62,856 bases of DNA from an uncultured Gammaproteobacteria bacterium (GTDB taxonomy: Bacteria > Patescibacteriota > Microgenomatia > CAZETR01 > Amesbacteraceae). The translations under genes were made by a program, and so were the position numbers. The notes beneath the pieces are model-generated. The model was not told the origin of the DNA and made no database searches. It was given only the letters and a program-made list of their open reading frames with translations. Where the stretch lies: assembly GCA_964356225.1 (NCBI GenBank), contig CAYHGA010000004.1, positions 1-62,856 on the forward strand, written 5' to 3'. Shown here in pieces: positions 3,799 through 22,309 of this stretch (position 1 is the first letter of the stretch; every line of letters begins with the position of its first letter).

Positions 3799-5577
3799 CT
3801 AATTGCCGCTGTCGGGGGCAAAAATCCACAACTTGGCAAAGCCGATCCTGACGCCGGATTCTACCGGTGAGTATCCTTGAAGTTGGTCGTCCAGCTCCTT
3901 GAGTTCAGGGCGGTCGAGGTTTCCGGAAATAATTGCCCGGGCCAATCCGCGGTGTTCGTCCCAGTATTTTTCTGTCAAAGTTGCTAGACGGTTTAAAGAA
4001 TCATAGCCGTATTTTAACAAATATACTGGGTCAGAAGCATGGAGATTACTACCGTCCCGTTCAGATTCTTTCCAAAATGACAGTTTCATTTCCACAAAGG
4101 CACTTGATTCCACGGCCTGGAGAATATCATCGTTCCGGTAAAACAATGAAGACGGGATAAAACTGCTGCGGTCATTTGATTGTCCGACAATTTGTACATT
4201 TTGGTGGACCCAGGGATTAGGATTGTTTGGAAACTCTGTGTCCGTAAAAAGGAGGGTTTCCAACGTTTTTTGCCCGTCTTTGTCGTAAGTAACGCTGGCC
4301 CAGGTCAACTCCACAAACCGCTTTTCAGCCGGATACCAGACTTTTTCGGTATAGACCCGCTTGATCCGGCCGGAAACAGTTAATCGGAATTCTTCTAGAG
4401 AATCCGCACTAAATGATGTTTCATACTTTTCAAACCCCAGGCTGTTCTCGATCCAGGAAATTTGCGGAAACTCCGGCCATGAATCGTGGACAAACAAAGT
4501 TTCGTAGCGCCTGGTCCACTGGCCGCCGGCGGCGTCATACCAAGCCATCTCTCCACCGCTTTGGTCAATAAAGGCAACTTTGAGAGGATACAACTTGACA
4601 GTTACTTTTCCTTCTCCCCCGGCAATCGGGATTCCGGCGCCGTCAATTACTTCCGGTCGCGGAATTTCAACCGCGTAGCTTTGACCTTCGACCGTAAAGT
4701 GGATCGTTCCGCCGCCCTGTGAGTCAGACTCAAACTCGGCATTTTGACTGTTAAGCGGCGGCAATGGTTGATTCATGTCCCACATTTCGGCGAAGGGGGA
4801 TGTTGGAGTGGCAGGCATTGAAGTAGCTGTGGCGGGGGGGGTGTCAATTTCGGCGGCTGCCGCAACTCCTCCCGGCTCCAATAACTTCCCTACCAACTCT
4901 TCAAAAGGGCCTTTGGCGGCCGGAAATTCAACTGTTCCGCCACCAGGGAAATGCCAGGTAGTTATCTTAGTAGCCGGATCATATGTAAACAGGATGCCTT
5001 TTTTGTCTGCCTTTCCATATTCTATATATATCATATCGGTCTTTCCGCTTTGATCCTGATGTTCTCGGGTAATCAAATCTTCATTTACCGTCTGTTGAAT
5101 ACCATCTCTTTCCCCGCGTACAACAACACTCTTAATAACATTATCTTTGGTACAAAAACCTGCAGTTTCTCCTCCGGCTTTACCACCTTCGACCATTATT
5201 GTGGCGGGGAAACAACCGGCCCCTTTGCCCGAGAGATTCTGCACTCCCGCCAACTGGCTTACTAAGACCGGATCCCCTTGAATCGTATCTCGGGTAAAAT
5301 AAGCAATCTGCGGTTGAGCAGCAACAGGAGCTTCTACGGGTCCATCCTGATTTTTAACAACCGTTCCACAGGCAGCAATGGCAATCAAAGCCGCCACCTC
5401 TGTCACAATAAGCCCTTTGTGATACAGTTTCCCAAAAGCCTCAAAAGGCTTTCCCCGAGAAATGCACTTCAAAATCTCTTGATCTGATGTCATAGCCCCA
5501 CTGGCCTTATCACCAAAAAGGAATCCGTAAAAACGCTCAATTCCGGGTCTAGAATTAGTATTTGGGATTGTTGCCAT
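3799..5577 (-). CDS. Large hypothetical exported/lipoprotein-like protein
   Basis: Long ORF; probable start ATG at 5577, downstream of the promoter in the 43-bp repeat; hydrophobic segment ending LIAIAAC; Pro/Thr linker. Confidence 0.7.
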   Translation of the reverse strand: MATIPNTNSRPGIERFYGFLFGDKASGAMTSDQEILKCISRGKPFEAFGKLYHKGLIVTEVAALIAIAACGTVVKNQDGPVEAPVAAQPQIAYFTRDTIQGDPVLVSQLAGVQNLSGKGAGCFPATIMVEGGKAGGETAGFCTKDNVIKSVVVRGERDGIQQTVNEDLITREHQDQSGKTDMIYIEYGKADKKGILFTYDPATKITTWHFPGGGTVEFPAAKGPFEELVGKLLEPGGVAAAAEIDTPPATATSMPATPTSPFAEMWDMNQPLPPLNSQNAEFESDSQGGGTIHFTVEGQSYAVEIPRPEVIDGAGIPIAGGEGKVTVKLYPLKVAFIDQSGGEMAWYDAAGGQWTRRYETLFVHDSWPEFPQISWIENSLGFEKYETSFSADSLEEFRLTVSGRIKRVYTEKVWYPAEKRFVELTWASVTYDKDGQKTLETLLFTDTEFPNNPNPWVHQNVQIVGQSNDRSSFIPSSLFYRNDDILQAVESSAFVEMKLSFWKESERDGSNLHASDPVYLLKYGYDSLNRLATLTEKYWDEHRGLARAIISGNLDRPELKELDDQLQGYSPVESGVRIGFAKLWIFAPDSGN

Positions 5578-16434: not shown

Positions 16435-17205
16435 ATGGATTATTTTGAGTGGAAAAAATTGCAGGGGGACAAGCAGCCTGTAAACCAGGAATTTAAGGCT
16501 GTTATTTTGGAGGTCAGGCCGGGGGTAGGAGGGGATGAAGCCAAAATTTGGGCAGGGGATGTGGTCAGGATGTATTCCAGATATGCGGAAGCCAGAAGTT
16601 GGAAGTTAGAGATGTTGGATGACGGAGTGATCAAGATTAGAGGGAAAGGAGCATATGAGCGGATGAAATGGGAAACGGGAGTGCATCGGGTGCAGAGAGT
16701 GCCGGAAACAGAGGCCCAGGGGAGGATCCATACCTCGACGGCTTCGGTAGTGGCCCTGCCGGAAGTGACGGAGAAAGAAATAGAAGTGAGAGAAGACGAT
16801 TTGGGTTGGGAATTTACGCGGGGGGGCGGGCATGGCGGACAGAATGTAAACAAAGTGGCGACTGCCGTGCGTTTGACGCACAAACCGACGGGAATAGTGG
16901 TGCAGTCGCGGCAAGAGAGGTTTCAGGAGCAAAATAGGAAAATTGCTTTGGAGCTGCTGCGGGCGCAGTTGTGGGAAAGAGAGGATGAGAGGAAGCGTCT
17001 AGAGACCAGTAATCAGCGTTTAGCGATTGGGAGGTCGATGAGATCGGAGAAAATTAGGACTTATAATTACCCGCAGAACCGGGTGACGGACCACAGGCTG
17101 AAGAAAAGTTGGTATAAACTGGACAAAATAATAGAGGGAGACCTATTTGATCTCACTGACAATAACACCGGCAGCGATGATGCCGGCGCCGATGACGAAG
17201 GGTAG
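16435..17205 (+). CDS. prfA: Peptide chain release factor 1 lacking N-terminal domain 1
   Basis: GGDEA, GVHRVQRVPETEAQGRIHTS (PxT motif), GGQNVNK and RTYNYPQNRVTDHR; only about 22 aa precede the domain 2 start. Confidence 0.9.
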   Translation: MDYFEWKKLQGDKQPVNQEFKAVILEVRPGVGGDEAKIWAGDVVRMYSRYAEARSWKLEMLDDGVIKIRGKGAYERMKWETGVHRVQRVPETEAQGRIHTSTASVVALPEVTEKEIEVREDDLGWEFTRGGGHGGQNVNKVATAVRLTHKPTGIVVQSRQERFQEQNRKIALELLRAQLWEREDERKRLETSNQRLAIGRSMRSEKIRTYNYPQNRVTDHRLKKSWYKLDKIIEGDLFDLTDNNTGSDDAGADDEG

Positions 17206-18039
17206 AGTGAGGGGTTCGCGGAGCCAAAAGTAGGCCAGGGGAGTGGCAAAAAGGGGCATCAAATAAGTGAAAACATTGGCTTCAGATGTTTCAATGGATT
17301 TTTGCGCCTGCTGGAATAGAAAATAGGCTAAGGCCCCGGAGAAAACGGCCATATAAATTACGCCGAGATGAGCGTAATAGTTATTGGTTATTGGTTCATG
17401 GTTCATAGTAAGTAGTGAAATTATGGACATGGAGAGAAAGCCGATGAAGAAATTCGAGGTGGTGATAAGCAGAGGGCTAAGTTCGTGGCGCAACAAATTT
17501 TTGGAAAGAATAAGATACACAACCCAAACGATATCGGCCGTTACTATCAGTAAGTTGCCGATTAGTGATCCGGAAAGGGGCTGAAAGACTATAACGACGG
17601 AACCGATGAAGGCGATGGCGATACCGATTTTTTCCCGGCGGGTGACGTGGTCTTTGAGAAACCACCAGCCGGCTAAAGTGGAGAGGATAGGGGAGGCGGA
17701 GGAAAGAAGGGAAGCGTCGATAGAGGTGGTGAGGCTGAAACCCCAAAAAAGTAACAGCAATTGTAAGCTGGTACCGGTTAATCCGCAGACGACGAGATAA
17801 AACCAGTCGCGGGGAGTAAAGCGGGCAAGTTTGAACCAAAACCGGGGTTCGAAGACAAAGAGCAAGGGAATAAGAATTAAGGACGTAAGAAAGAAACGAT
17901 AGGTGAGAAAAACGATGGGGTCAAAATAGCCGAGGGTAAATTTGATGACCGGGCCGGCAAATCCCCAGATGGCGACGGCGATTAAAAGAAGGATATAAGC
18001 TCTGATGCGGGCAGACATACGCAAATTTTCAATTTTCAA
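17143..18039 (-). CDS. EamA/DMT family transporter
   Basis: About ten TM helices in two repeats; AIWG, YRF and GVIYMAVFSGALAYFLF motifs. Confidence 0.88.
   Translation of the reverse strand: MKIENLRMSARIRAYILLLIAVAIWGFAGPVIKFTLGYFDPIVFLTYRFFLTSLILIPLLFVFEPRFWFKLARFTPRDWFYLVVCGLTGTSLQLLLLFWGFSLTTSIDASLLSSASPILSTLAGWWFLKDHVTRREKIGIAIAFIGSVVIVFQPLSGSLIGNLLIVTADIVWVVYLILSKNLLRHELSPLLITTSNFFIGFLSMSIISLLTMNHEPITNNYYAHLGVIYMAVFSGALAYFLFQQAQKSIETSEANVFTYLMPLFATPLAYFWLREPLTLPFVIGAGIIAAGVIVSEIK
17378..17405 (+). repeat. Heptamer tandem repeat inside the EamA gene
   Basis: tagttat tggttat tggttca tggttca; encodes TMNHEPITNNY. Confidence 0.75.
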
Positions 18040-18044
18040 TTTTT
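18024..18044 (+). repeat. Heptamer tandem repeat at the hisS/EamA junction
   Basis: aattttc aattttc aattttt. Confidence 0.7.
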
Positions 18045-19249
18045 AAATAATTAAGTAATTCTTCAATTTTCAAATCTTCCTGTTCGCCAGTCTTCATGTC
18101 TTTAAATTTTATTGTGTCTTTTGCCGCCTCTTCCGGTCCTAAAATCGCTACAAAGGGGATCCCTTTTACGTTGGCATATTTTAATTGCTTTTCGAGTTTT
18201 GTTCGGTCGTCGGGGTAGAGCTCGGTGGCAATATTCGCCTGACGAAGTTTTGTACTCAATTCTATTGATTTATTAAGTAGTTCTGGAGAGAATATAGTAA
18301 CTAAGACGCGGGTGGAAGTGGGGGAAATGTTTGACCAAAGGTTGAGTTCCTCGATAACGTCACAGATGCGGTCGAGGCCTAAAGTTGTACCGACAGCCGG
18401 GAGGTCCGGTCCGCCCAGAGACTTGATGAGATTGTCATAACGGCCGCCGCCGGTAATTGAGCCGATTTTGGGTTCGGTGACCACTGTTTCAAAAATGGCG
18501 CCAGTATAGTAGTCCAAACCGCGGACGAGACGGGGGTCAAAGACAACGTTTTTGGCCCCCAGTTTTTGGGCTATGCCTATGATTTGTTGTAAGTTTTCGT
18601 CGGGTCGGACTGACTTTAAGCCGGTAAAGATGTTTTGAATTTCATTTGCAGATATGCCTTTTTGGGATAACTCTTGTTTAACTTCGTCTATAGATTTTTT
18701 ATCCAGTTTGTCTATGGTTTGCAGGACTGATAAATCTTTGGTGATGCTAAACAATATCCGGCGGGAATTGATGCGAATCTGGAAGTCTTTAAAGTCGAGA
18801 GCGGTGAGAGAATCGGAGATGATGGCCAGAATTTCGGCGTCGACCAATGGCGAGACACTTCCGACGGTGTCAATATCACATTGATAAAATTCGCGATAAC
18901 GGCTTTTTTGAGTGTTTTCGGCCCGGAAGGCGGACTGAATTTGGTAGCGCTTAAATGGTTTAGGCAGATTGGGATATTGGGCCATGACCCGGGCTAAGGG
19001 GACGGTGAGATCATACTTGAGTCCCACATCGCGACCCCCCGGATCTTTAAACAGATACATCAATTTTTCTGCTTCCTGACCGTATTTTCCAGTTAGGACT
19101 TCAGTGTATTCGAGGGTGGGGGTTTGCAGCTCGGAAAAGCCATATTTTTCAAATACTCCCTTCAATATGTTTATGACACGCGAACGGATGGCCATAGTCT
19201 GCGGCAAAAAATCCCGGAAGCCTTTAAGGGTTTGAATAGTGTTTGACAT
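18029..19249 (-). CDS. hisS: Histidine--tRNA ligase
   Basis: KGFRDFLP, LKYDLTVPLAR, RYREFYQCDID, LVRGLDYYTG and GGGRYD motifs; anticodon-binding domain present. Confidence 0.97.
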   Translation of the reverse strand: MSNTIQTLKGFRDFLPQTMAIRSRVINILKGVFEKYGFSELQTPTLEYTEVLTGKYGQEAEKLMYLFKDPGGRDVGLKYDLTVPLARVMAQYPNLPKPFKRYQIQSAFRAENTQKSRYREFYQCDIDTVGSVSPLVDAEILAIISDSLTALDFKDFQIRINSRRILFSITKDLSVLQTIDKLDKKSIDEVKQELSQKGISANEIQNIFTGLKSVRPDENLQQIIGIAQKLGAKNVVFDPRLVRGLDYYTGAIFETVVTEPKIGSITGGGRYDNLIKSLGGPDLPAVGTTLGLDRICDVIEELNLWSNISPTSTRVLVTIFSPELLNKSIELSTKLRQANIATELYPDDRTKLEKQLKYANVKGIPFVAILGPEEAAKDTIKFKDMKTGEQEDLKIEELLNYLKIEN

Positions 19250-19324
19250 AATTGTAATTTTAAGGTATTATAAAGCTTGAGAAGTCGGTATATGTGCGGA
19301 TAGCCATGGCCGGCTTTTCTGCTT

Positions 19325-20035
19325 TTATACTAGACTCTCCAAATGACTTGGATTTTGTTTATCCAACAGCTTTCTTTTTATAAGTTTGGCCTTTATTTTT
19401 TCAATTCTACTCTTTGCGATCACTCCTGAAAAGATCATTCCTGCAATAGGGGCTAGCGCGTCGGCTATTTGAACATCGGGGTCTAAATTAGTTTTTTTGA
19501 CAAAACTGATAGAAGTAACACTATTTCTGTAATTTTGATTCTGCGACTGTAGACCGGCGTGGGCTTCCATAAGGAAAAGATCTTGAGACGGGTCGGATTC
19601 GGCAACAATTTTTCCTTTTGATTGGTCCTTCGTCAAATTGGTTAAGAAAAGTTCTGCGAGTCTAAAATACGATTTTTTAAGAATTGTTTTAGGCAGCCAC
19701 CCTTGTTTCTTGGCCTTTTGCTTATCAGCAATAACAAAAATCAATGAGATTTCAGTGTTGTTTAAAATGCTTATAAATTCAGACCAAAATAGAGTTTCCT
19801 TTTTGGGATCACGTAATAACGAAAACTGTCCCTTTTTCCTGAACATGTCCCTACTGTGAAATACTATATCTTCGTCTTTAAAAAACTTCATTTTTAGTTT
19901 TCTAATCTTTATATCAAGCTTAGGTTTAAACTTTTCAGTGATTAAGACAGCCGAAAGGACAAACAGTTTTGAAGCATGATCAAAAGAAGCTTTTCCACTT
20001 TCGTCAATTGAAAGAACCTTATATTTATTTAGCAT
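19325..20035 (-). CDS. DUF3800 domain protein (RNase H-like fold)
   Basis: IDESG, FVLSAV, VFHSRD and VQIADALA motifs. Confidence 0.8.
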   Translation of the reverse strand: MLNKYKVLSIDESGKASFDHASKLFVLSAVLITEKFKPKLDIKIRKLKMKFFKDEDIVFHSRDMFRKKGQFSLLRDPKKETLFWSEFISILNNTEISLIFVIADKQKAKKQGWLPKTILKKSYFRLAELFLTNLTKDQSKGKIVAESDPSQDLFLMEAHAGLQSQNQNYRNSVTSISFVKKTNLDPDVQIADALAPIAGMIFSGVIAKSRIEKIKAKLIKRKLLDKQNPSHLESLV

Positions 20036-20036
20036 A

Positions 20037-20093
20037 TTAAAGTTTCTGGGGCAAAAAATCCCGAAAGCCCTTGAGAGTCTGAATTTTATTCAT
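20037..20093 (-). pseudogene. Duplicated hisS 5' fragment (MNKIQTLKGFRDFLPQKL*)
   Basis: 18-codon ORF matching the hisS N-terminus MSNTIQTLKGFRDFLPQT; its ATG overlaps the HAD stop codon (ATGA). Confidence 0.85.
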
Positions 20094-20461
20094 ATGATAT
20101 TTAATAAATCACGAATATTAATAAAGTTAATTCCAGCATCCTTAGCCATTCTAGCATCATTTACTGTATCCCCGATATAAACAATTATTTCTTTACAGTT
20201 TAAAATTCTGAACAATCTTGGATCAGGTTTCCTCAACCGGGTGTCATCTTTAGTCACAACCATATCTACGGGAAATAATTTTATTACCCCAATCTTTTTG
20301 AGTATATTTAACGTTTCTGTTCGTTTAGCTCCGGTAATAATTGCAAAACAATAAACTTTAGATAATTTTAAAAGTATTTTTTTAGACAATAATAGTCTAG
20401 CCGGTCTCATGCTAGCTAAAGTTCCGGATAGATCAAAAACTATGTATTTATTATTTTTCAT
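20090..20461 (-). CDS. Small HAD-family hydrolase (motif I DLSGT, no cap domain)
   Basis: IVFDLSGT, IITG, KPDP and YIGDTVND motifs. Confidence 0.75.
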   Translation of the reverse strand: MKNNKYIVFDLSGTLASMRPARLLLSKKILLKLSKVYCFAIITGAKRTETLNILKKIGVIKLFPVDMVVTKDDTRLRKPDPRLFRILNCKEIIVYIGDTVNDARMAKDAGINFINIRDLLNII

Positions 20462-21677
20462 ACAGCAATAGGAACACAGTTGTAATCTTTATCACTAATA
20501 ATTATCTCCTCAGATAGTGAAGCCATTGTTCCTGCGATTTTACCTCCTACAATCCAGACGTTAAATTTACATTTTGGTGATTTGAGTAATTTTGGTTTGT
20601 TTGACGAAGTGTCAAAAGCCCATATCGAAGGAAGACCCAATCCGCGGAGTTGGCTAAAGCGACTTTTTTTGATGAAAAACTATCACCCTTGAGAAGAAAA
20701 TCTTGCGGGGGAGAACCTCTTGTGAATGGGTAGGTTACGGCAAAAAGGTTTGGTTGTTGTGCATAGGCAGAAACTAATAAAGATTTCTCTTCATATTTCG
20801 GACACCAAGTAGGGAAAACAGACCCCGGTGATCTTTGTCTTAATAAGGTTATTAAATCTGTTATACCAGGATTTATCATTCGCGGATCTCCGTCAACATA
20901 TAGAAGCGGAAAAGTTTTTATGTAATCAGGGCGATATTTTTGTGGATCTAAGAGTTCAACATAATTAAACAATTTTCTTTGAACCAGAACTTTAGCCATA
21001 AATTCCAAAGAAGCTCTCTCCCCAGTTTCCTTTGAGCCTCTGGCCGAGTTTATGAAGATTATCCCAAGTTTGGAATATTTCCCAGTATCAAAAAATTTAG
21101 CTAAAGTTTCAAGCGGTTTGTATGTTCCGCCATTTATTGTATTGAGACTGTCTAGTATTCCAAAGGCGTCGACCCATTGCGTATTTACCTCTATAATTTT
21201 TGGTCCATCTCTTCCTATGACGATATCAACTCGTGCGCCATTTGGTTTTTGAATTTCTGAGGTTGGAATATTTTTTAATACTTCAAAACCATCAAGTGCC
21301 GTCCTCTCAATTTGTTTTAGTTGTTCTCGCTTTAGTTTTAAAGGATCTAATATAAAGTTGACCGCTTTTTCTCCGTATGTACCCCCGGTTTGTTCAAGTT
21401 GCAATTGCATTCTCAGAGATTTTGCAGCCAAGTTGGCTGCTTCTGTTGTCGTTGCTCCAAACTTTTTAAACAGCTGCGATCTTCTTTGAAATTCATTTTT
21501 TGTATCAGATCTTATTTCTCTCACCAATGATGTTGATCTTGCTAATCCTCTTTGAGATTTTTCAAGTTCTGAAGGTTTTTTAATAAAGCTAGTTGCTTCG
21601 CCTAAAGCAGCACGATAAATCATGCCCAATTGTTGAGCACTCGTAGACTGTTCAATTAGTAAGTCTAATTCTTTCAT
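20458..21677 (-). pseudogene. ATP-grasp-like protein with apparent frameshift near 20640
   Basis: 376-aa ORF (RVDIVIGRDGPKIIEVNTQW) whose plausible C-terminus (KCKFNVWIVGGKIAG...ISD) continues in another frame, 20640..20458, coupled to the HAD start. Confidence 0.5.
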
Positions 21678-21679
21678 AG

Positions 21680-21751
21680 GGTGGGTGAGGGGAGTTGAAC
21701 CCCCGTTTTCAGCTCCACAAGCTGACGTGCTGCCGTTGCACTACACCCACC
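21680..21751 (-). tRNA. tRNA-His(GUG), with genomic G-1 and discriminator C73; CCA not encoded
   Basis: Acceptor stem GTGGGTG/CACCCAC, D stem GTGC/GCAC, anticodon arm TCAGC-TTGTGGA-GCTGA, T loop TTCAACT. Confidence 0.95.
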
Positions 21752-21761
21752 ATGGGTAAAC

Positions 21762-21814
21762 AAAAAACCTCCCGTTCATTAGCCACGAAATGATCATGAC
21801 TAAGGAACGAGAGG
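21762..21814 (-). terminator. Intrinsic terminator of the T-box leader
   Basis: CCUCUCGUUC-CUUAGUCAUG...CGUGGCUAA-UGAACGGGAGG followed by UUUUUUGUUU, about 10 nt upstream of tRNA-His. Confidence 0.85.
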
Positions 21815-21996
21815 CGACTAAAAAAGGACCTCCCGCGGTCCCATCCTTTATTTCCCGATAAATTACTTATCGGGACTCTTTGGCTGGCTCGACCTTGCGG
21901 TGATTTCAGCTGGCTGATTTTTACAGTTTGCCTTCTGTACAGTATTTGGCTGTCTCCTCTCCAGGCGTGACTTGGATACAAACGGATTTATGAATT
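21762..21996 (-). ncRNA. T-box riboswitch (His-specific) upstream of tRNA-His and hisS
   Basis: AAGGA-UGGGACC-GCGGGAGG pairs with CCUCUCGU-UCCUU (antiterminator, overlapping the terminator); stem III UCCCGAUAA/UUAUCGGGA directly upstream; CAC triplets at 21967..21969 and 21900..21902. Confidence 0.85.
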
Positions 21997-22002
21997 GCTT
22001 AT

Positions 22003-22031
22003 ATGGTAACTTATAGTCTTATGTTTGTCAA
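22003..22031 (-). promoter_or_regulatory. sigma70 promoter for the T-box/tRNA-His transcript
   Basis: TTGACA (22031..22026)-N17-TACCAT (22008..22003). Confidence 0.7.
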
Positions 22032-22309
22032 ATTTCAAAGCGGGTGACGAGATTTGCGTTCAGCGCTAGAGCTATTTTGCGAAGCAAGGAGAGGGAAGGC
22101 CTGGAGCTGGCCCATTCCAGGCGGGAAATACTGGCTTGATTAGTTTTGGCTTTTTTGGCCAGTTGGGCTTGGGTTAACCCACTTTTGACACGGGCTGCAA
22201 TGAGGCTGTTGGCTAGTTGATATTCTGGTTCCAAACGTTTTATCTCCTTGGCTGTCTCAGGATCAGCAAGAAGCTCTTTTCTGAAATTTTTCCAAGTTAT
22301 ATTTTTCAT
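22028..22309 (-). CDS. XRE-family HTH protein (HigA-like antitoxin)
   Basis: LIAARVKSGLTQAQLAKKAKTNQASISRLE...PSLSLLRKIA.AL. Confidence 0.88.
   Translation of the reverse strand: MKNITWKNFRKELLADPETAKEIKRLEPEYQLANSLIAARVKSGLTQAQLAKKAKTNQASISRLEWASSRPSLSLLRKIALALNANLVTRFEI

Follow-up and report, generated by a model that had tools for sequence, protein, structure and literature searches.

What is encoded in the 277-nt non-coding region in front of a tRNA-His gene of an Amesbacteria genome, and which genes does it control? The window, here the whole stretch of DNA analysed (62,856 nt; contig CAYHGA010000004.1, assembly GCA_964356225.1), derives from Candidatus Amesbacteria (Microgenomates; Candidate Phyla Radiation (CPR)/Patescibacteria), an ultra-small organism collected from Hainich groundwater in the 0.1-µm filter fraction; its histidyl-tRNA synthetase (HisRS) occurs on ENA contigs of this site and has Amesbacteria as nearest named relatives. 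The gene order on the minus strand is an XRE-type helix-turn-helix (HTH) gene, the 277-nt non-coding region, tRNA-His(GTG), a 376-aa open reading frame (ORF), a HAD-hydrolase fragment, a DUF3800 gene, hisS and an EamA transporter gene. Positions 21762-22031 of the window (minus strand) comprise a promoter, a T-box leader specific for His and a strong terminator. T-boxes are the textbook case of an RNA that senses another RNA, and the genes they are known to control encode synthetases, biosynthetic enzymes and transporters. The initial annotation of this locus had placed a T-box directly before the gene for its own ligand, a claim that is upheld by the covariation, the discriminator signature and the adjacency in 58/84 related leaders described below. 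With a probability of roughly 0.7, we conclude that the leader is a compact His-specific T-box that terminates transcription, and that its first regulated product would be tRNA-His. Because about 70% of 84 related leaders share the tRNA-adjacent layout, the switch probably governs how much of its own ligand, tRNA-His, is made.

Related leaders were collected by exact-protein look-ups of HisRS homologues, a HisRS-anchored genome scan and one metagenome pattern scan. The genome scan was dominated by Bacteroidota and Chloroflexota and yielded the leader only at the loci L004, L005, L014 and L016. The metagenome pattern was GTAAAAA-N60-90-AAGGATGGNACCGCG, which fixed AAGGA and GCG, left their pairing partners free and included neither the specifier nor the tRNA. 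A total of 126 matches gave 91 distinct leaders and, after removal of five that were too short and two chance matches in coding sequence (L193 and L200), 84 evaluable distinct leaders, all from Microgenomates (CPR) contigs of uncultured relatives. Other amino-acid specificities were sought by leaving the bulge position N free in the same pattern, and just UGGG/His was returned.

The promoter and the 5' part of the leader, including the decoding domain, contain the following elements.

22003 to 22031, minus strand: sigma-70-type promoter TTGACA-17-TACCAT, 10/12 matches, transcript start expected near 21996
21955 to 21986, minus strand: short Stem I of 32 nt, consisting of base helix, internal loop and apical hairpin
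21939 to 21953, minus strand: Stem II ACAG-CCAAAUA-CUGU, 4/4 pairs changed on both sides, 100% of alignment cells paired
21923 to 21938, minus strand: Stem IIA ACAG-AAGGCAAA-CUGU, a covarying helix
within 21912 to 21938, minus strand: F-box-like CUGUAAAAA
21932..21930 with 21914..21912, minus strand: pseudoknot IIB GGC/GCC, in which the Stem IIA loop pairs with the sequence after the conserved GUAAAAA
21883 to 21910, minus strand: variable hairpin between pseudoknot and Stem III, taken from the minimum-free-energy fold, with a sequence that differs in relatives

The promoter, found here as it had been proposed, recurs as TTGACA-N17-TAnnnT at the equivalent position in L004, L005, L014, L016, L084, L086, L088 and L089. 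The base helix of Stem I, UCC/GGA, is formed by 21986-21984 with 21957-21955, and the apical specifier hairpin UCCA-AGUCACGCC-UGGA (21976..21960, minus strand) carries the His codon CAC (21969..21967) within its loop AGUCACGCC, directly followed by the purine G21966. In a 43-sequence alignment of the 5' domain, the GUCACG sequence (CAC plus G) is unchanged in 43/43 leaders, and it lies in a hairpin loop of nearly every other leader. Both helices of Stem I covary (for instance, UCC/GGA versus AGC/GCU), the base helix being 3 bp long and the apical hairpin, of 4-5 bp, displaying AGUCACG(A/C). The loop-centred CAC specifier of the initial annotation is supported by this invariance and covariation, and it conforms to the 'C rule' of T-boxes, by which the third specifier position is C (PMC7583486). 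A second CAC (21902..21900) had been listed there as a weaker candidate; it is part of the variable hairpin and not conserved.

For Stem II, the A-rich loop is conserved and its AAA is invariant in the same alignment. Besides the Stem IIA/B pseudoknot, the leader possesses an F-box-like element, C(C/U)GUAAAAA, which is conserved and similar to the F-box CCGUCA; the alignment pairs 68-86 and 69-85 of the pseudoknot each occur as at least five standard pair types. A 'stem II-like' pairing CC..CUG-UA-CAG..GG, drawn in this region at first, has to be replaced, as covariation favours Stem II ACAG-CCAAAUA-CUGU together with Stem IIA and the pseudoknot. Taken over the 43 sequences, five helices including the pseudoknot are supported, with 90.5% of cells paired versus 62% in shuffles and a covariation score of 0.692 versus 0.169 in shuffles (0/500 reached it) or 0.04-0.14 with slid partners.

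The 3' part of the leader contains the discriminator, the antiterminator and two terminator-like hairpins.

21851 to 21880, minus strand: AAGAG (the RRRxG element), 10-bp Stem III UCCCGAUAAG/UUUAUCGGGA and AA, Stem III proper being at 21875..21853
21829 to 21848, minus strand: 5' half of the antiterminator, with A1 strand AAGGA, bulge UGGGACC (21843-21837) and A2 strand GCGGGAGG
21802 to 21814, minus strand: 3' half of the antiterminator, with A2 strand CCUCUCGU and A1 strand UCCUU, the same bases forming the 5' strand of the terminator
21820 to 21842, minus strand: proximal hairpin GGGACC-GCGGGA-GGUCCU plus U6, -10.8 kcal/mol, flagged as terminator-like, inside the antiterminator (A2) loop
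21762 to 21815, minus strand: main intrinsic terminator, a 48-nt hairpin (21815..21768) plus U6 (21767..21762), -31.8 kcal/mol, z = -8.9

The signature 5'-RRRxG-Stem III-AA-3' of the T-box discriminator is described in PMC7583486. By hairpin analysis, 45 distinct stems were found at the Stem III position of 53 leaders (median 8 bp), flanked by AAGAG on the 5' side in 40/53 and by AA on the 3' side in 51/53. In the antiterminator, 97% of cells are paired, with compensatory changes at three pairs; helix A2 has a G.U pair at its base in 38/38 leaders. The bulge begins with UGGG in 126/126 pattern matches although N was free in the search, and C73, which matches the G of UGGG and also pairs with G-1, is present in 51/52 downstream tRNA-His genes. 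The terminator, 97.6% paired and likewise with covariation, reuses the 3' strand of A1/A2 (shared 21814-21802), and the terminated state (-43.3 kcal/mol) is far below the antiterminator (-14.1 kcal/mol), the usual energy relation of T-boxes. Antiterminator and terminator are, as judged from this shared strand, mutually exclusive. Stem III, the switch between AAGGA-[UGGGACC]...UCCUU and the terminator, and the match of bulge G to C73 had all been recognised in the initial annotation and are retained here; the proximal hairpin and its U6 (21842..21820) had been overlooked.

This proximal hairpin of 5-6 bp, with U5-8 directly after it, is present in 81/85 leaders (median -8.1 kcal/mol), where its register is either GGGACC/GGUCC or GACCGC/GCGGUC. 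Since the last G residues of UGGG, the ACC and the 5' strand of A2 are taken up by it, it would exclude both the pairing of the tRNA acceptor end and helix A2. A hairpin plus U-run that overlaps the acceptor-binding site is absent from described T-boxes. It may act as a weak terminator or pause, perhaps giving a leader without a Stem I platform time for tRNA capture. A translational platform that sequesters a Shine-Dalgarno sequence was not found: hairpin and U6 stand before the tRNA gene, and in 58/84 loci the next gene is not a translated one. Since two terminator-like hairpins with U-tracts precede an untranslated tRNA gene, the leader must act on transcription.

Some leaders carry a structured insertion of about 72 nt, CAAYCC...GAGCCG..ACGAAUAGU..AAGGCGAA...GGGAU. 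It lies within the A2 loop in L084 (2655-2725), L155, L116, L187 and L204, and between terminator and tRNA in L110, L115, L117 and L159. Among eight copies, 12/16 predicted pairs show compensatory changes, and the insertion is without an Rfam match.

A covariance model of the 5' domain scored the window at 98.2 bits, the top of all matches, although the window belongs to the seed and the score is partly circular; an independent relative outside the seed gave 82 bits (E = 9e-23). As a sequence pattern, this arrangement of elements is far beyond chance. On comparative grounds the leader is classed as a genuine T-box of the short-Stem-I kind, because it combines a covarying Stem I displaying CAC, the IIA/B pseudoknot, AAGAG-Stem III-AA, the G.U at the A2 base, the UGGG/C73 match and a mutually exclusive terminator.

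A second compact T-box was observed in Microgenomates, at 16966-17140 (minus strand) of L013, upstream of an ORF named by eye as proS-like. Its short apical loop holds CCC (Pro) and its bulge is UGGU; the Rfam T-box model gave 43 bits (E = 2.3e-8) with Stem I skipped. His is therefore not the only specificity among the short-Stem-I T-boxes of CPR.

The gene next to the leader is the tRNA that it would sense.

21680 to 21750, minus strand, with encoded G-1 at 21751: tRNA-His (anticodon GUG), 66.2 bits, C73 at 21680, CCA not encoded

The tRNA genes downstream of the 84 leaders were counted with ARAGORN, the tRNA having been no search criterion. An intact tRNA-His(GTG) follows on the same strand in 56/84, a tRNA-His with an insertion of about 32 nt in the anticodon loop in 2/84, and a 5' or 3' remnant of tRNA-His in 6/84, while no tRNA is found downstream in 20/84. 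Intact genes and those with the insertion together place a same-strand tRNA-His after 58/84 leaders (about 70%), and after clustering at 80% identity tRNA-linked members occur in 27/41 leader clusters. The adjacency survey called for in the initial annotation has thus come out in its favour. In the window the tRNA begins 10 nt after the U-tract of the terminator, in agreement with the distance of about 10 nt given before; across the loci the gap has a median of 14 nt and is 0-2 nt in 15/56, where UUUUUU runs directly into G-1. A separate promoter in this gap would have spoken against control of the tRNA by the leader: no promoter-like site was found in the window's 10-nt spacer, in its terminator or anywhere between the leader promoter and the tRNA, and the zero spacer of the 15 loci leaves no room for one. 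The downstream tRNAs have G-1 able to pair with C73, and CCA is encoded in just 10/51.

Two operon types recur behind the leader, one with tRNA-His, poorly conserved ORFs and hisS, as in the window, and the other with tRNA-His, hisG, hisD and further his genes. As hisS and hisG/hisD are classical T-box targets (PMC9413887), the module resembles an ordinary His T-box with a tRNA gene at its head.

A small palindromic element, ..CCUCCGAAGCCUUGGCGAAGGAGG.., is scattered in the spacers of L084, L096 and L158. The insertion of about 32 nt in the tRNA-His anticodon loop of L086 (~4290-4322) and L125 resembles this element and is called an intron by ARAGORN; it may either inactivate the tRNA or represent a short intron of an unusual kind.

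Based on these elements, we infer tRNA binding, switching, processing and co-transcription to hisS in the following way. Transcription would start near 21996, and the 5' module (Stem I with CAC, A-rich Stem II and IIA/B pseudoknot) would read the GUG anticodon of tRNA-His. The UGGG of the discriminator module would pair with the free C73-C-C-A 3' end of uncharged tRNA-His, stabilising the weak antiterminator (-14 kcal/mol) against the proximal hairpin and the distal terminator (together -43 kcal/mol). Charged His-tRNA could not provide this stabilisation, and RNA polymerase would stop at 21820-21825 or 21762-21767, in either case upstream of the tRNA gene. In the read-through RNA the riboswitch leader would at the same time be the 5' leader of pre-tRNA-His, to be cut by RNase P before G-1, and cleavage on the 3' side, behind C73, would give the next ORF hardly any leader, the transcript running on through the variable cassette into hisS. 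As the net effect, uncharged tRNA-His would raise both tRNA-His and HisRS.

Several observations weigh against this reading. The Rfam T-box model (RF00230) has no match in the window at its gathering score, nor in a 1-kb search relaxed to E <= 10, and the identification therefore rests on comparative evidence; the covariance-model search suggested in the initial annotation was successful only for relatives, 4/10 of which gave sub-threshold but significant scores of 44.3 (E = 4.5e-7), 27, 26 and 24 bits, the gathering score being 93. Stem I spans just 32 nt and has no distal double T-loop platform, which places the leader outside the canonical long-Stem-I class; transcriptional T-boxes normally require this platform for fast tRNA capture (PMC7583486). 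Inspection by eye of the 43-sequence alignment for a K-turn and an S-turn gave nothing convincing, Stem II being just 4-5 bp long and the internal loop of Stem I fitting the tandem G.A consensus inconsistently. The G-1:C73 pair of tRNA-His competes with the UGGG-C73 pair, in agreement with the TBDB paper, which reports no discriminator matching for His T-boxes owing to G-1:C73 pairing. At L005 (8457-8646) and L014 (9701-9881) the decoding domain scores 82 and 46 bits and stands directly upstream of tRNA-His, but the T-box bulge (UGGN), Stem III and the A1/A2 partners are lost and terminator-like hairpins remain; these leaders may represent a decayed switch or a different expression platform. 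In six lineages tRNA-His has decayed to remnants; this copy must therefore be dispensable there, and another copy must exist. Finally, a T-box is off by default without tRNA and cannot report scarcity of its own ligand, and a sole tRNA-His gene under its control would therefore rely on leaky read-through.

Three other explanations were weighed on this background. Possibly the T-box regulates only the protein genes (the cassette and hisS), and tRNA-His is an independently transcribed or redundant passenger, maybe borne by the cassette, with a constitutive copy elsewhere. Its dispensability, seen in the remnants of six lineages and the 20 leaders without tRNA, would fit such a passenger, as would its presence in only one of L088 and L089, which have identical HisRS, the low G+C and insertion footprint between tRNA and hisS, and the leaderless tRNA-His found upstream of hisS or in a tRNA cluster of other Microgenomates (L007, L008 and L019). 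We nevertheless regard it as unlikely: the spacer is 0-2 nt in 15/56 loci and 10 nt in the window, with no promoter-like site there or in the terminator, the tRNA is intact with its identity elements in 27/41 leader clusters, and redundancy would alter the physiological meaning of the arrangement but not co-transcription.

The decay of the discriminator in L005 and L014, where the 5' domain and the tRNA are kept, raises the question whether the window leader is itself a non-switching relic, a constitutive or constitutively leaky terminator that holds tRNA and hisS at a fixed level. This is quite improbable, since the window keeps CAC, the pseudoknot, AAGAG-Stem III-AA, UGGGACC, the G.U and the A1/A2 partners intact, tops the family model (98.2 bits, with the circularity of seed membership noted above) and belongs to a family whose compensatory changes point to purifying selection. 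Hardly credible at all is that the structured region is no cis-regulator of the genes behind it but serves to terminate the upstream XRE gene at its 3' end or is a small RNA in its own right. The XRE ORF does end at 22028, inside the -35 box, and two terminators stand within the next 270 nt; however, the leader has its own conserved promoter and a complete T-box discriminator signature, it sits behind unrelated upstream genes in relatives, and the genes that it faces on its own strand are always tRNA-His, hisS or hisG.

The compact T-box preferred here was compared with known systems. It shares with the canonical transcriptional T-boxes of Firmicutes (RF00230; tyrS and glyQS of B. subtilis, and the His-specific hisS, his and hisXYZ leaders) the reading of a specifier codon by the anticodon, the 7-nt UGGNACC bulge between A1 and A2, the RRRxG-Stem III-AA element and the G.U at the A2 base (PMC7583486, PMC9413887), the opposition of a weak antiterminator to a strong terminator with U-tract, and the histidine-related targets hisS and hisG. 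Unlike these, the Amesbacteria leader is without a long Stem I, an interdigitated T-loop platform or an evident K-turn; the leaders of its family score far below the Rfam gathering score and carry an extra hairpin plus U-run in the A2 loop; it is the cognate tRNA, not a protein gene, that comes first downstream, and the host belongs to CPR/Patescibacteria. The ultrashort-Stem-I T-boxes of Actinobacteria (ileS of Mycobacterium and Nocardia) likewise display the specifier in the apical loop of a short Stem I, contain a Stem II domain and a IIA/B pseudoknot, and commonly have A2 insertions (PMC7583486). They are, in contrast, Ile-specific and act on translation by sequestering the Shine-Dalgarno sequence, whereas the Microgenomates leader is His-specific, and its Stem II, a hairpin of 4-5 bp, has an A-rich loop and lacks a recognisable S-turn. 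The actinobacterial analogy drawn in the initial annotation consequently holds for the short Stem I with its apical specifier but not for the mode of action, the window leader having intrinsic terminators. Stem Sa of the staphylococcal glyS T-box (PMC9177973) is also a lineage-specific extra element in the antiterminator/terminator region. Compared with stem Sa, the insertion here is a short hairpin plus U5-8 over the acceptor-binding bases; instead of an additional contact to the tRNA, it resembles a pause or a terminator in proximal position.

Mixed tRNA-mRNA operons such as E. coli thrU-tyrU-glyT-thrT-tufB co-transcribe tRNAs with translation genes, the tRNAs being freed by RNase P and 3' processing. 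Such operons are not known to be under a riboswitch sensing an encoded tRNA, whereas here sensor, ligand gene and charging enzyme would be combined in one unit. Full-text literature searches gave no report of T-boxes in CPR/Patescibacteria or preceding tRNA genes, an earlier mention in older reviews being possible: the TBDB paper has no tRNA gene among its listed T-box targets, the target survey of Wels 2008 never mentions tRNA genes, and the phrase 'tRNA gene' is absent from the 2020 T-box review (PMC7583486). The comparison supports as new a family of compact, terminator-based His T-boxes in CPR, most members of which stand directly before the gene of the tRNA that they would sense.

At slightly better than even odds, we favour a wider interpretation, in which the family, widespread in Microgenomates, joins a riboswitch to the gene of its own ligand and to the charging enzyme or supply pathway; uncharged tRNA-His would induce tRNA-His, the leader would double as pre-tRNA 5' leader, 3' processing would yield a near-leaderless mRNA, and the proximal hairpin would compensate for the absent elbow platform. 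Such a family would add T-boxes, missed by the standard model, to CPR/Patescibacteria, and would be a natural exception to the rule that transcriptional T-boxes need a long Stem I platform, the proximal hairpin plus U-run being the candidate compensation. A riboswitch on its own-ligand gene would create a positive loop of tRNA-His coupled to a negative loop via HisRS or histidine synthesis. With an RNA of about 240 nt and about 90 natural variants, the stoichiometry of tRNA and synthetase and the kinetics of T-boxes become testable and are open to structural work.

Beyond the tRNA the window contains the following features.

20547 to 21677, minus strand: 376-aa ORF, ATG 2 nt after tRNA position 73, low G+C (0.36-0.39)
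20090 to 20461, minus strand: HAD-hydrolase fragment, part of the variable cassette between tRNA and hisS (19325..20461)
20045 to 20084, minus strand: 40 nt duplicated from the hisS 5' end, directly preceding the DUF3800 gene
19325 to 20035, minus strand: DUF3800 gene, a cassette member
18029 to 19249, minus strand: hisS (histidyl-tRNA synthetase; TIGR00442, 395 bits, 2.8e-118), 2.4 kb past tRNA-His

Now placed at 18029..19249, hisS lies further downstream as had been claimed, and it is the probable last gene regulated by the leader. On the minus strand between tRNA and hisS, no promoter with at least 10/12 matches (weak 9/12 sites lie inside ORFs only) and no convincing terminator were found, and co-transcription from the leader through hisS is plausible.

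The 376-aa ORF has no match in Pfam or NCBIfam. The ATG of the next ORF lies 0-2 nt past the annotated tRNA 3' end in 27/56 related loci (in the window, CACCCACC-CU-AUG at 21675-21680), with no Shine-Dalgarno sequence visible; once the tRNA 3' end is processed, the mRNA would therefore have next to no leader. A protein family of about 370-460 aa with N-terminal YYV(I/V)SxTGFGG and no Pfam match is encoded by the first ORF after leader or tRNA in L084, L088, L123, L158, L169 and L198, and behind the His leader it is accompanied by a partner protein of about 230 aa. This family may have an uncharacterised function related to histidine or tRNA-His.

The G+C content of the window between tRNA-His and hisS (19150-21700) is 0.31-0.39, compared with about 0.48 around it. 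A 40-nt direct repeat, 85% identical, is located at 20045-20084 and at 19198-19237, the latter within the first codons of hisS (IQTLKGFRDFLPQ), and appears to be the trace left by a cassette insertion at the hisS 5' end. An integrative island marked by a direct repeat of the tRNA 3' end was also considered, but none was found, the duplicated hisS 5' end being present instead. L088 and L089, with identical HisRS, contain different ORFs between the tRNA and the hisS site and differ in the presence of the tRNA. By this comparison, the tRNA-hisS interval is a hypervariable cassette site within an operon assigned to riboswitch control.

Upstream of the leader lies the remaining neighbour.

22028 to 22309, minus strand: XRE/HipB-like HTH gene, with the ORF end at 22028 falling inside the -35 box of the leader promoter

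This gene stands alone in the window; in L086 the same gene follows a Gp49/HigB-like toxin gene, and the window copy may therefore be an orphan antitoxin. Elsewhere in the window, between 4000 and 12000, a GC skew of unusual strength (up to 0.4) switches sign near 10 kb, possibly at a replication origin or terminus or at a strand-switch boundary.

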